Source: Planctomycetota bacterium
GTDB taxonomy: Bacteria; Planctomycetota; Brocadiia; SM23-32; JAKLEA01
Reading direction: 5' to 3'
DNA length: 64,000 nt
Assembly: GCA_022711755.1 (NCBI GenBank)
Contig: JAKLEA010000001.1
Location: 336,743 to 400,742, forward strand
Part shown: positions 25,468 to 32,790 of the stretch, piece after piece
Position numbering within the stretch: position 1 is the first letter of the stretch
How the letters are laid out: each line of letters begins with the position of its first letter
Notes under the pieces: model-generated
Told to the model about the DNA's origin: nothing
What the model saw: the letters and a program-made list of their open reading frames with translations, nothing else
Databases searched by the model: none
Position numbers and translations under genes: made by a program

Positions 25468-26022
25468 TCAGTCAGACACAAAAACGGCTGCGGCAACTGT
25501 GGTAGTCCAGATTCCCTTCTTATCGCCCTTCGCAGTCTGGCAGATGTTCCTGGTTCGAACGATTTTGCCGCTCATCCGGTAGACTTCCTTGCGTTCGTCG
25601 TAGTTCTTGTCGGGATTGAAGTCAATTCCTAACGTTGTGGCCAGCATGGTCGCGGCAAGGTCCTCTGCGTAGTCGCCGGCCTTTTCCTCGTTTTCTCCAA
25701 AGGAATGGTGTTCGCTGAGATAGCCGTACTGCTCGCCTTCCGCCGGCACGGCAAGCCCAATGGCTGAAGCGATCATCCGGTGCGGCTCGTTCGTGGCGTT
25801 ATCGGCCATCACGCAGAAAACAATCTGGCCGGGAGCCATGTTCTTGAGACCGTCCGCCGGTTGCACGATCTTGCAGCCCGGGGGGAAGATACTGGAGACG
25901 CGCACAAGGTTGAACTCGGCGATGCTCGCCTTCCTGAGCGCCAGCTCGAAGGACTGGAGCTTATCCTTGTGCCTCCCAACGCCCTTGGTGAAGAAGATGC
26001 GACGGGGGACAAAGTTCTGCAT
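25468..26022 (-). CDS. pdaD: Pyruvoyl-dependent arginine decarboxylase
   Basis: MQNFVPRRIFFTKGVGRHKD and the PdaD core are present. GGAGGG lies 7 nt upstream of this ATG. Confidence 0.8.
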   Translation of the reverse strand: MQNFVPRRIFFTKGVGRHKDKLQSFELALRKASIAEFNLVRVSSIFPPGCKIVQPADGLKNMAPGQIVFCVMADNATNEPHRMIASAIGLAVPAEGEQYGYLSEHHSFGENEEKAGDYAEDLAATMLATTLGIDFNPDKNYDERKEVYRMSGKIVRTRNICQTAKGDKKGIWTTTVAAAVFVSD

Positions 26023-26304
26023 GTCGTCACCCTCCACGGCGCGCGCCCGACGGAAAGACCAGTCCCGGCCGCAAGCCTTGAAACGAGAAAAGAGAAAAGA
26101 AAACGCCGCTACCCCTAAACCTCACTGGCTGGAAGAGGGTATATTCATTGCGTGTCAGGCAGTCAATCTAAATTTCCGCCCGCCCGATGTTTTTCTTCAG
26201 GAGTTTCCATTCCGGCGGCTCCATGATACAATCGTCGGCAGCGTGGGAAAAGCTCCAATTTCTGAAGGCGAACTGCAATACCGGCCAGAGCGCAGCGTCA
26301 AGGC

Positions 26305-27150
26305 ATGTTCAGTATCATCATCCTGACCCACAACAAAGCTCCCTACACACGCAAGTGTCTGGAATCTATTTTGCAGACACGGGGAGAGGCTGTCGAGGTC
26401 ATCGTCGTTGACAACGCCTCCACAGACGAAACGCATGCCGTGCTTGACGAGATGGAGACACGGATGGGAGCTGTCGGCATTCGGATGCGTTCCATCCGGA
26501 ACCGCGTGAATGGCGGATGCTGCGCCGGACGCAATCAGGGAATGGCGGCAGCCTCCGGAGACATCATGGTCTTTATGGATAATGACGTAATGGCTTCCGG
26601 ACCGGACTGGGCTTCCGGATTCAGGCGATGTTTTGAGGCATCGCCGCTGACAGGCATCATCGGACCGAAGCTGATCTACCCCTTCCCTCCGCACCTGATT
26701 CAGTGCGCGGGCGTCGCCATATCCCGCAGCGGGCGCGTGCAGTTCCGGGGGCGCGGCGAAGCCCGCAACGCATCATCCTTCGCAGTCGCGAAGGAGGTCC
26801 AGTGCCTGATAAGCGCGTGTTTCGCCTTCAAACGCGAGGTCTACGATCGTCTGGGCGGGCTTGATCTAGCGTTCGGCCCGATTGAGTTTGAGGATTTCGA
26901 TTTCTGCTATCGCGCGCGCGCGGCGGGTTACAAGTGTCTTTACACGCCATCTGTGGAGATGTTCCACTGGGAAAGCATAACGTCCGAAGGCACGGAAAGA
27001 CTCCCCAACACGTACCTCATCATCAAACACGGGATGATGTTCAAGCAGAGGTGGCGTCACATGTTCGAGAACGAAGACGGACCGCCGGATTCCGAATGCG
27101 CATGGCGCAGAATCCCTGTGCCGTCCCTTGAAGGCGAAAGAATGCGGTAG
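26305..27150 (+). CDS. Glycosyltransferase family 2
   Basis: FSIIILTHNKAPYTRKCLESIL, DNASTDET and the DxD region are present. Confidence 0.75.
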   Translation: MFSIIILTHNKAPYTRKCLESILQTRGEAVEVIVVDNASTDETHAVLDEMETRMGAVGIRMRSIRNRVNGGCCAGRNQGMAAASGDIMVFMDNDVMASGPDWASGFRRCFEASPLTGIIGPKLIYPFPPHLIQCAGVAISRSGRVQFRGRGEARNASSFAVAKEVQCLISACFAFKREVYDRLGGLDLAFGPIEFEDFDFCYRARAAGYKCLYTPSVEMFHWESITSEGTERLPNTYLIIKHGMMFKQRWRHMFENEDGPPDSECAWRRIPVPSLEGERMR

Positions 27151-27193
27151 GCGAGCCGCATGACTCATCATACACGGAAGGAGCGACCTGAGA

Positions 27194-32155: not shown

Positions 32156-32561
32156 TTTAAACTGGAACCCATCGAAACGGCAGACGCGGCTTATCGCCTG
32201 TGCCATCCTGCCTGGGATGCTGGCCATCGCCGGTGGAGTTTTGGCGTTACGCAGCGATTCCTTGCAATCCGCAGCGCCCCTCTGGATCGTATCCGCAGCG
32301 ATTTCTTTGACATGCCTTGCGCTACCCCAGATCGGGTGGCTGCTTTACCTGCTTTTCAACTGCGTTACGTATCCAATCACATGGGCGCTTTCGCGCCTTG
32401 TGCCTGCGATTCTCTTCTACCTGGTACTCACGCCTTTCGGAGTTCTGCTCAGGTTGATCGGGAGGGACGCGCTTAAATTGAAGCGCGATTCCGACGCTCG
32501 CTCATTCTGGACTCCGCGGGAGCAGCCGGATAGCATGGAAAGGTACTTCAAACAGTTCTGA
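32142..32561 (+). CDS. SxtJ-like small polytopic membrane protein
   Basis: It is a 139-aa protein with about 4 TM helices. Its C-terminal LTPFGVLLRLIGRDALKLKRD...FWTPRE...YFKQF pattern resembles the SxtJ family. It overlaps the carbamoyltransferase stop. Confidence 0.5.
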   Translation: MAAHDLNWNPSKRQTRLIACAILPGMLAIAGGVLALRSDSLQSAAPLWIVSAAISLTCLALPQIGWLLYLLFNCVTYPITWALSRLVPAILFYLVLTPFGVLLRLIGRDALKLKRDSDARSFWTPREQPDSMERYFKQF

Positions 32562-32574
32562 ACGCGGGGCGGCA

Positions 32575-32790
32575 ATGGCTGATTCAAGCGAGATACAAAA
32601 GGACGCGCAAAAGGAACTCAACCGGCTGGCCGAGTCAAGGCAGCCGGGCTTCATGCGCGAGCTTGTTGATCTTGTTCTCCATAATAAAAAATGGTGGATG
32701 ATCCCGATCATCGTTGTCCTGCTTCTGGGCGGATTGCTGGTCATCGCCACCAGCAGCTCCGCCTCGGCGTTGATCTACGCGCTGTTCTGA
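32575..32790 (+). CDS. SxtK/DUF5989-like small membrane protein
   Basis: It is 71 aa. The motif KKWWMIPIIVVLLLGGLLVIATSSSASALIYALF matches the DUF5989 pattern. Confidence 0.55.
   Translation: MADSSEIQKDAQKELNRLAESRQPGFMRELVDLVLHNKKWWMIPIIVVLLLGGLLVIATSSSASALIYALF

Follow-up and report, generated by a model that had tools for sequence, protein, structure and literature searches.

We analyzed a cluster of seven genes encoded on one strand of a 64,000-nucleotide (nt) stretch of contig JAKLEA010000001.1 (this whole stretch is referred to below as the window), which belongs to a metagenome-assembled genome (MAG) of a Planctomycetota bacterium (NCBI label Candidatus Brocadiia). The genes code, in this order, for a family 2 glycosyltransferase (GT2), an acyl carrier protein (ACP), two alpha/beta-fold proteins (here named HydA and HydB), a carbamoyltransferase-methyltransferase (CT-MT) fusion protein, and two small proteins of the SxtJ and DUF5989 families; a pyruvoyl-dependent arginine decarboxylase gene, pdaD, is transcribed divergently. 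All eight open reading frames (ORFs) named in a preliminary description of this DNA were found where it had placed them, and searches of each ORF with hidden Markov models of Pfam and NCBIfam upheld its domain and family calls. That description had viewed the locus as one compact module. Comparison with other genomes showed that it is composed of two independently occurring cassettes, designated A (GT2-ACP-hydA-hydB) and B (CT-MT-SxtJ-DUF5989), each of which is conserved separately, whereas the combined gene order did not recur at any other locus examined.

The seven genes are separated by 43, 32, -8, 75, -14 and 13 nt from GT2 to DUF5989 (Table 1). The hydA stop codon (28369-71) lies within an 8-nt overlap with hydB, whose long ORF begins at 28292 and whose likely start is the ATG at 28364; the start-stop overlap previously noticed between the fusion gene (stop codon 32153-55) and the SxtJ-like gene (ATG at 32142) amounts to 14 nt. 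The intergenic region shared with pdaD, given before as about 270 bp, is 267 bp long. It contains a single weak sigma-70-like site (26204-26232, + strand), which is uninformative, and an Rfam scan of positions 24000-33500 returned no match and hence no riboswitch in this region. Promoters and terminators were scanned for over positions 24000-37500; promoter-like sites were weak consensus matches, terminator-like sites occurred at chance level (15 found versus 13.6 expected), and a scan of this kind cannot define operon boundaries. Among the cluster proteins, hydrophobic segments are confined to the SxtJ-like and DUF5989 proteins, and all of the enzymes are predicted to be cytoplasmic.

Table 1. 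Genes, domains and intergenic region of the two-cassette locus, in window coordinates
Feature	Position	Strand	Basis
pdaD, pyruvoyl-dependent arginine decarboxylase	25468-26037	-	PF01862, NF009064
Divergent intergenic region pdaD/GT2, 267 bp	26038-26304	.	sequence read
Cassette A, gene 1: GT2, soluble GT-A-fold family 2 glycosyltransferase, 281 amino acids (aa), DND motif	26305-27150	+	PF00535
Cassette A, gene 2: ACP, 89 aa, Ser43 in GIDST as phosphopantetheine site	27194-27463	+	PP-binding
Cassette A, gene 3: hydrolase A (hydA), "hydrolase 2"-like alpha/beta-fold protein	27496-28371	+	TIGR03101 best match
Cassette A, gene 4: hydrolase B (hydB), "hydrolase 1"-like alpha/beta-fold enzyme	28364-29239	+	TIGR03100 best match
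Cassette B, gene 1: 946-aa CT-zinc ribbon-MT protein, trifunctional architecture	29315-32155	+	Pfam, model
Kae1/ASKHA-like carbamoyl-transfer domain, aa 4-341	29324-30337	+	PF02543
YrdC-like carbamoyl-adenylate-forming domain, aa 400-588	30512-31078	+	PF16861
Cys4 zinc ribbon, possibly Trm112-like, C614, C617, C630, C633	31154-31213	+	sequence, model
Class I S-adenosylmethionine (SAM) methyltransferase domain and family-specific C-terminal lid, aa 690-946	31382-32152	+	Methyltransf_11/12/25/31
Cassette B, gene 2: SxtJ-family small membrane protein, 139 aa	32142-32561	+	positional profile, PF19588
Cassette B, gene 3: DUF5989 single-pass membrane protein, 71 aa	32575-32790	+	PF19451

The largest protein of the cluster had been read as a CT N-terminus of the NodU/CmcH/SxtI type followed by a Cys4 zinc ribbon and a class I SAM methyltransferase, and all three parts were found. 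Carbam_trans_N (318 bits; cut-off 24) and Carbam_trans_C (223 bits; cut-off 27) both matched above their gathering scores, and Methyltransf_11/12/25/31 models matched aa 704-808. The Kae1-like domain retains H12-D13, H127-H128-x-x-H131, D150 and D333, and the YrdC-like domain retains GRMEFGPRALG, KFRESFRPFAP, THVD and NTSFN; these motifs, known from TobZ-type enzymes, align to GdmN (7vyj) and are invariant across 36 fusion homologs. The same homologs share the SAM motif EVGCGTG (residue 709), D732, and a lid motif specific for this family, W849-x-x-D852-Q-Y-x-x-P857-H-E-S-x-H862. Of the four Cys residues of the zinc ribbon, C630 and C633 alone reach 90% conservation in homologs. The predicted structure contains a four-strand ribbon (pLDDT above 90) and, despite this ribbon and the Cys4 set, the window protein had no match to PF03966 (Trm112-like), which is recorded for some homologs. 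The AlphaFold model of the full-length fusion was reasonably confident (pLDDT 76.7, pTM 0.80), and the zinc-ribbon-MT part modeled alone reached a pLDDT of 83.7. A Foldseek search of PDB with the MT-region model gave AtmM and RebM as top matches and also detected Rv2067c and a Trm112-MT complex.

An assembly or frameshift error that joined two genes would also produce such an ORF, and this explanation has already been refuted and deserves practically no credence. The 946-aa fusion is a real protein, since an identical protein is encoded by three contigs, two of which were shown to stem from different JGI samples, and more than 120 full-length homolog clusters, 61-67% identical to it, share the fusion architecture. 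The 120 best database matches were all 928-1097 aa long, covered 97-100% of the query (nearly all 99-100%) and had the same domains; the confidence of the full-length model also argues against an artifact. These clusters contradict the statement that such a fusion is unusual. One homolog has already been named "methyltransferase domain-containing protein" by NCBI, and a literature search did not find a description of a CT-MT fusion. The suggested relationship of the MT to NodS was not borne out: the window protein did not match PF05401 (NodS) at E<=0.01, and only faint precomputed matches were seen in some homologs. The NodU equivalog model (NF041651) gave a partial match of 131 bits, compared with its cut-off of 1000.

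The two small proteins that follow the fusion are membrane proteins of the predicted families. The 139-aa protein scored 23.1 bits (E 1.3e-4) against SxtJ (PF19588), 1.3 bits short of the gathering score of 24.4. When a profile was built from 59 ORFs occupying the same place after CT homologs elsewhere, it scored 119 bits (E 8e-39), and 57 of the 60 sequences (the 59 positional homologs and the window protein) matched PF19588 at E<=0.01, the best at 8.5e-18. Assignment to the SxtJ family was thus sustained through the positional profile; the earlier count of four transmembrane (TM) segments is not settled, as 3-4 hydrophobic segments were seen, followed by a conserved C-terminal tail of the ...SYW...RYFRQF type. 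The 71-aa protein, previously recognized by its IYALF motif, matched DUF5989 (PF19451) with 57.1 bits (gathering score 27) and a profile of 46 positional homologs with 78.6 bits. It consists of a KKWW motif, a TM segment and the IYALF tail, and the layout KKWW-TM-...IY.LF is common to 45 homologs. A DUF5989 profile search for the name SxtK matched approximately 8000 clusters, none of them informatively named; in our literature searches no paper mentioned DUF5989, and SxtJ was discussed in saxitoxin papers only. In those papers SxtJ and SxtK are treated as uncharacterized helpers of SxtI (PMC2885083, PMC2679770).

We further examined the occurrence of cassette B in species-representative genomes and found 80 loci with CT homologs 56-68% identical to the window CT. 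They span more than 10 phyla, including Planctomycetota, Acidobacteriota, Nitrospirota, Omnitrophota, Bacteroidota/Ignavibacteria, Verrucomicrobiota, Gemmatimonadota, Myxococcota, Thermodesulfobacteriota and others. In 61 of the 68 informative loci (those with at least 1.2 kb beyond the CT gene) an SxtJ-like ORF was present beside the CT, and 48 of the 68 had DUF5989 as well, which bears out the analogy to SxtI/J/K drawn earlier. Judged by this recurrence, CT, SxtJ and DUF5989 form a triad that is strongly conserved as a unit. The CTs of these loci are mostly stand-alone proteins without a fused MT, and three arrangements of MT and triad were observed: the fused form, in the window, L001 and the more than 120 clusters; an independent, convergent MT gene beyond DUF5989 (L012); and an independent MT gene following SxtJ (L058). 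Two further fusions link the enzyme with its membrane partner. A single 761-aa ORF on a Thermoanaerobaculia chromosome (OY762911.1; L021:10001-12286) is a CT::SxtJ fusion, and a 1097-aa protein (P0085) has the order CT-MT-SxtJ; such proteins suggest that the enzyme is tethered to the membrane. The DUF5989 gene of L021 is located upstream of the CT.

The surroundings of the triad include nucleotide-sugar enzymes, GT4s, a sulfotransferase, an AlgX-SGNH protein, lpxC/lpxA and sulfatases. In Pfam counts of its immediate neighbors, the sole recurrent family was GDSL/SGNH lipase (8 of 73 downstream and 8 of 69 upstream ORFs, together 16 across 85 triad loci), other families occurring no more than 4 times each. 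An SGNH/GDSL gene follows the triad in L083 and L087. In L083, a fusion-bearing locus with a sulfotransferase, GT4 and nucleotide-sugar genes, the triad lies between an AlgX-domain SGNH protein (8886-10004) and a second SGNH protein (13537-14580). AlgX-type proteins act on exported polysaccharide, and the L083 pattern may indicate that a step outside the cytoplasm is associated with the triad. Two specific schemes were considered and set aside. A relay of carbamoyl groups through SGNH in the periplasm was rejected: nothing was found in its favor, and enzymes carbamoylated at serine usually end as dead-end adducts. The occurrence of the MT with the CT triad at loci devoid of an ACP makes a malonyl-ACP methyl ester cycle like that of BioC/BioH unlikely.

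Cassette A was found at seven other distinct loci (L089, L090/L091, L092, L093, L094, L095 and L096, L091 being a second contig that encodes the L090 protein). All four genes, in the order of the window, are present in L089, L090, L092, L093, L095 and L096, L094 ends after the ACP gene, and at one further place an ACP gene is followed by two hydrolase genes. The window GT2 matched Glycos_transf_2 (PF00535) with 85 bits, has no TM segment, and is 45-55% identical to the GT2s heading the cassette in L089-L093 and 51-64% identical to those in L094-L096. A search of metagenomes with the GT2 alignment returned mostly generic GT2s, L094-L096 alone being orthologous, and a PDB sequence search with GT2 returned generic GT-A enzymes only. 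The ACP (PP-binding, 34.8 bits) has the DS(T) serine noted in the preliminary description, Ser43 in GIDST. Its best NCBIfam matches were AmcB, an ACP of type-II polyketide synthase (PKS) kind (54.9 bits), and generic ACPs, and it is 39-57% identical to the ACPs of other cassette-A loci.

Upstream of cassette A in other genomes we observed genes for a lipoyl-domain protein, ketoreductase (KR), ketosynthase (KS), chain length factor (CLF)-like KS and E1 alpha/beta subunits; downstream were GT4s and a MurJ/Wzx-type flippase, with a polysaccharide deacetylase also nearby in L095. The upstream set, including a 160-aa lipoyl-domain protein and 2-oxoacid dehydrogenase E1 alpha/beta, was seen in L092:2608-8476, L093:1074-7816 and L089:1975-5046, and looks like a keto-acid-primed type-II fatty acid synthase or PKS that feeds the dedicated ACP. 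Judged from gene content, the KS/KR/E1 and GT4/flippase surroundings are the context of a predicted acylated glycan or glycolipid pathway.

The two hydrolase genes had been described as translationally coupled paralogs. HydA and HydB are indeed paralogous (33% identity over 114 aa, E 4e-15) and their genes overlap; however, neither is an ordinary serine hydrolase, as both lack the G-x-S-x-G elbow with Asp and His of serine alpha/beta hydrolases. HydA has Arg116 at the nucleophile elbow (G-L-R-F-G), which falls on the Cys of HydB in a pairwise alignment. This Arg (G-x-R-x-G) is invariant in 23 of 23 HydA relatives and likewise in all 48 sequences formed by the window protein and 47 fusion N-domains, and HydA-type sequences have no invariant His. 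HydA is probably a non-catalytic partner, because Arg116 replaces the nucleophile and a conserved His is missing. HydB possesses a Cys-Asp-His triad within the motifs G-L-C-S-G, GGGD and NH; all 148 HydB-type sequences (the window protein and 147 relatives, elbow G-[IL]-C-S-G) have the Cys, 147 the Asp and 144 the His.

The two proteins are also found naturally fused. Among the best 150 matches, 48 representatives, all within P0325-P0447, are 530-670 aa long, and 47 of them have a HydA-like N-terminal half and a HydB-like C-terminal half, the same domain order as the gene order in the window. Their best NCBIfam matches, TIGR03101 for HydA (111.3 bits; cut-off 202.75) and TIGR03100 for HydB (79.3 bits; cut-off 168.45), fall short of the equivalog level and indicate relatives of these families; HydB also had a weak DLH match in Pfam. 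Homologs of both were named by JGI as exosortase-type hydrolases, which agrees with NCBIfam and confirms the previously noted link to the exosortase-type set of ACP, hydrolase 1 and hydrolase 2. HydA homologs are at most 39% identical, apart from an identical NCBI entry, and PDB sequence searches with HydA and HydB returned generic esterases only. We infer that the pair forms a two-domain unit, a thiol acyl-enzyme catalyst with a non-catalytic partner, acting on the adjacent ACP. More generally, the "exosortase-associated hydrolase 1/2" families appear to represent a catalytic and a pseudo-enzyme domain, because the N-terminal half of the fusions has the invariant Arg and the C-terminal half the invariant Cys-Asp-His.

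The tailoring role originally suggested, in which carbamoyl, methyl and acyl groups are placed on a glycan or glycolipid, is still the best interpretation, and acyl, carbamoyl and methyl tailoring of an envelope glycoconjugate is most likely. With moderate confidence, we propose that the two head-to-tail cassettes are probably co-transcribed and jointly tailor a membrane-associated glycoconjugate (a glycolipid or lipid-linked glycan) of the planctomycete represented by this MAG. Cassette A would be a cytoplasmic unit for ACP-dependent acyl transfer together with a sugar transferase: HydB would accept an acyl group from ACP, bind it as a thioester and then transfer it to an acceptor or release it, with HydA serving as its non-catalytic partner domain, and GT2 would add or supply a sugar. 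The CT may act as an O-carbamoyltransferase of the TobZ/GdmN/NodU type using ATP and carbamoyl phosphate, joined to the SAM methyltransferase by the zinc ribbon. SxtJ and DUF5989 would anchor this protein at the cytoplasmic face of the membrane, and carbamoyl and methyl groups would be placed on one and the same substrate.

An alternative explanation, which is possible and to which we assign a lower probability, is that the cassettes are two operons with unrelated functions that adjoin each other by chance. Cassette B would then carbamoylate or methylate a conserved envelope component by itself, as seems to be the case in other phyla, and cassette A would be a remnant or minimal acyl-glycan pathway. 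It is favored by the distribution of the genes: homologs of ACP, hydA and hydB were absent from all 85 triad loci, CT, SxtJ and DUF5989 were absent from the seven other distinct cassette-A loci, and the triad looks self-contained across highly variable contexts. A weak promoter-like match (29247-29276) is also present within the 75-nt gap between hydB and the CT gene. On the other hand, the genes share one strand with tight spacing, and the terminator scan detected no terminator-like site in the same gap. The seven genes form an island between unrelated genes, with pdaD, dxr, ispG and rseP upstream and genes for a secreted FG-GAP/GH2 protein and a GH31 protein downstream. In addition, cassette A lacks its usual GT4 and flippase genes here, and cassette B occupies exactly the position where these follow it elsewhere.

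Several observations weigh against joint tailoring of one glycoconjugate. Besides the lack of any second locus that combines the cassettes (0 of 85 triad loci and 0 of the seven other cassette-A loci) and the gap with its promoter-like match that parts them, the window does not contain the KS/KR/E1 chain-building genes, GT4s or flippase that accompany cassette A in other genomes, and a Pfam scan of its approximately 39 ORFs detected no acyl-ACP ligase or phosphopantetheinyl transferase. The acyl source and export route are consequently not accounted for. The highly variable neighborhoods of the triad, in which only SGNH recurs, would also fit a substrate unrelated to its neighbors. The CT::SxtJ fusions are single observations that could be indel artifacts at overlapping start and stop codons, and the Foldseek matches of the MT are generic class I methyltransferases with TM-scores of 0.4-0.55, which allow no conclusion about the substrate.

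A third explanation places the seven genes in a small-molecule pathway, in which an ACP-tethered acyl or polyketide-like intermediate is glycosylated, carbamoylated and methylated, and then released by the Cys hydrolase acting as a thioesterase. The nearest solved CTs (GdmN, NovN and TobZ) are natural-product tailoring enzymes, the top structural matches of the MT are natural-product sugar O-methyltransferases, the best match of the ACP is the type-II-PKS-like AmcB, and related cassette-A loci carry KS/CLF/KR genes. This explanation is nevertheless improbable, considering that no KS, adenylation or other scaffold-building gene is present in the window, that other cassette-A loci end in GT4s and MurJ/Wzx flippases typical of glycan export, and that the triad is membrane-linked with CTs 56-68% identical across phyla, unlike strain-specific secondary metabolism.

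The preliminary description also raised, as a less likely option, a guanidino-metabolite pathway fed by agmatine from PdaD. The pdaD product matched PvlArgDC (PF01862, E 6.8e-62) and NF009064 (215.8 bits, above the equivalog cut-off of 207) and, by these scores, can be regarded as a genuine arginine decarboxylase. It shares the 267-bp intergenic region with the cluster, and sxtI/J/K-like genes are present, as would be expected of a saxitoxin-like pathway. However, pdaD homologs were absent from the 85 triad loci and from all other cassette-A loci, the gene sits with the housekeeping genes dxr, ispG and rseP, and no amidinotransferase, SxtA-like PKS, dioxygenase or other sxt core gene was detected in the Pfam scan of the 64-kb window. 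The guanidino pathway is therefore disfavored as very unlikely, and pdaD is best considered a divergent neighbor without evidence of cluster membership.

A more far-reaching form of joint tailoring may be considered, which we regard as unlikely: the CT-SxtJ-DUF5989(-SGNH) set would be an ancient, phylum-spanning, membrane-tethered carbamoylation machine that acts on a conserved glycolipid or glycan of the envelope, and the source from which saxitoxin clusters recruited sxtI-J-K-L. In the planctomycete it would be coupled to GT2 and to a so far unrecognized two-domain acyl-ACP transacylase, with HydB as the Cys-Asp-His enzyme and HydA as the Arg-bearing pseudo-enzyme, to make an acylated, methylated and carbamoylated product, either a Nod-factor-like signal or a surface glycolipid.

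Additional features were observed elsewhere in the window. Directly after the cluster, a 1372-aa secreted protein (32943-37061, + strand) contains FG-GAP/beta-propeller repeats and a GH2-type TIM barrel; it has a signal-peptide-like N-terminus after an internal start and is not conserved beside either cassette in other genomes. In an 855-aa protein (5554-8121, - strand), a Ser/Thr kinase is found together with double zinc ribbons, TPR repeats and, at the C-terminus, an FGE-sulfatase (formylglycine-generating enzyme-like) domain; the gene for this protein adjoins a sulfatase gene (8283-9764). Another fusion (570 aa; 60439-62151, + strand) involves a pyridoxal phosphate (PLP)-dependent domain (PALP, cysteine-synthase-like) and an AhpC/TSA peroxiredoxin domain. 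Secretion ATPases of the GspE/PilB type, two in tandem and both with an MshEN domain, adjoin a GspF-type platform protein (321-5516, - strand), and three ORFs of 1124, 728 and 568 aa (15599-18973, 37134-39320 and 51804-53510, all - strand) had no Pfam match at E<=1e-4.

The gene families discussed here have been cataloged, and O-carbamoylation, methylation and acyl transfer are conventional chemistry, so no new kind of system is described. What is new is the juxtaposition of the two cassettes, the evidence for the sxtIJK(L)-type cassette as a widespread, apparently membrane-tethered unit outside cyanobacteria, and the Cys/Arg anatomy of the hydrolase pair. Since the description of the saxitoxin cluster, SxtJ and SxtK have remained orphan ORFs. 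The triad is present in at least 10 non-cyanobacterial phyla, often with an SGNH hydrolase, and fusions tie the CT physically to SxtJ; because of this high conservation and these fusions, the function of SxtJ/K can be studied outside toxin producers. The "hydrolase 1/2" families can be reinterpreted as a Cys-dependent domain and an Arg-containing pseudo-enzyme that is often fused to it, and their location next to an ACP points to acyl transfer rather than hydrolysis. The seven genes are, moreover, a compact expression target for a candidate modified glycoconjugate of PVC bacteria, whose envelopes are poorly characterized.

We compared the two cassettes with known systems. The exosortase A-associated set of ACP, hydrolase 1 (TIGR03100) and hydrolase 2 (TIGR03101) provides the best NCBIfam matches for an adjacent pair located beside an ACP gene, but the window proteins score far under the cut-offs, the order is hydrolase 2 followed by hydrolase 1, and a dedicated GT2 is present. 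No exosortase (EpsH), PEP-CTERM gene, acyl-CoA ligase or PLP decarboxylase was detected among the approximately 39 window ORFs. HydB shares the G-x-C-x-G elbow and the Cys-Asp-His triad with PhaC and dienelactone hydrolase and, like RhlA, an ACP-dependent alpha/beta-fold acyltransferase, is encoded beside an ACP and glycosyltransferases. It has no specific sequence relationship to these enzymes, the analogy to RhlA is mechanistic, and the obligate Arg-substituted partner domain has no counterpart in any of them.

The Nod-factor toolkit comprises the GT2 NodC, the ACP NodF, the acyltransferase NodA, the N-methyltransferase NodS and the carbamoyltransferase NodU. The window has a like set of chemistries (sugar, ACP-borne acyl group, acyl transfer, methyl and carbamoyl), which is a functional analogy only: homology is limited to the superfamily level, and there is no specific homology to NodS, NodC or NodA. 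The window GT2 is a soluble enzyme of 281 aa, whereas NodC is membrane-bound and processive, and acyl transfer would be performed by an alpha/beta-fold Cys enzyme rather than one of the NodA fold.

With TobZ, GdmN, NovN and the NodU-CmcH enzymes, the window CT shares the Kae1-like and YrdC-like architecture and all hallmark motifs (327 bits to GdmN 7vyj and 242 bits to TobZ). TobZ converts carbamoyl phosphate and ATP to carbamoyl-AMP, which is followed by O-carbamoylation. These enzymes are soluble and stand-alone, whereas the window CT forms one polypeptide with an MT and is accompanied by membrane partners dedicated to it. A precedent for O-carbamoylation of glycans, likened here by its description, is WapO (PA5005) of Pseudomonas, a NodU-family CT and putative lipopolysaccharide-core heptose 7-O-carbamoyltransferase that is thought to decorate an envelope glycan (PMC8005017). 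WapO is encoded in a core-oligosaccharide operon, and neither SxtJ/DUF5989 partners nor an MT fusion has been described for it.

The closest parallel to cassette B is the sxt block of saxitoxin clusters, which consists of an O-carbamoyltransferase of ~610 aa, a membrane protein of ~135 aa, an ORF of ~54 aa and then a GDSL lipase (PMC2679770). Within it, sxtK (162-165 bp) directly follows sxtJ (PMC2679770, PMC7073992), and the functions of SxtJ and SxtK are unassigned (PMC2885083). The planctomycete locus does not belong to a saxitoxin cluster, as the core genes sxtA (PKS-like), sxtG (amidinotransferase) and sxtH/T (dioxygenases) were not found among the scanned ORFs; the window also lacks the other sxt genes and an SGNH gene, and its CT, compared with SxtI, bears an additional zinc-ribbon-MT module. 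DUF5989 is equated with SxtK by size and position alone. In gene order and protein sizes, however, the CT, SxtJ-family and DUF5989 genes of the window correspond to sxtI-sxtJ-sxtK(-sxtL), and the SGNH/GDSL genes that follow the triad in L083 and L087 extend this correspondence to the fourth gene of the block.

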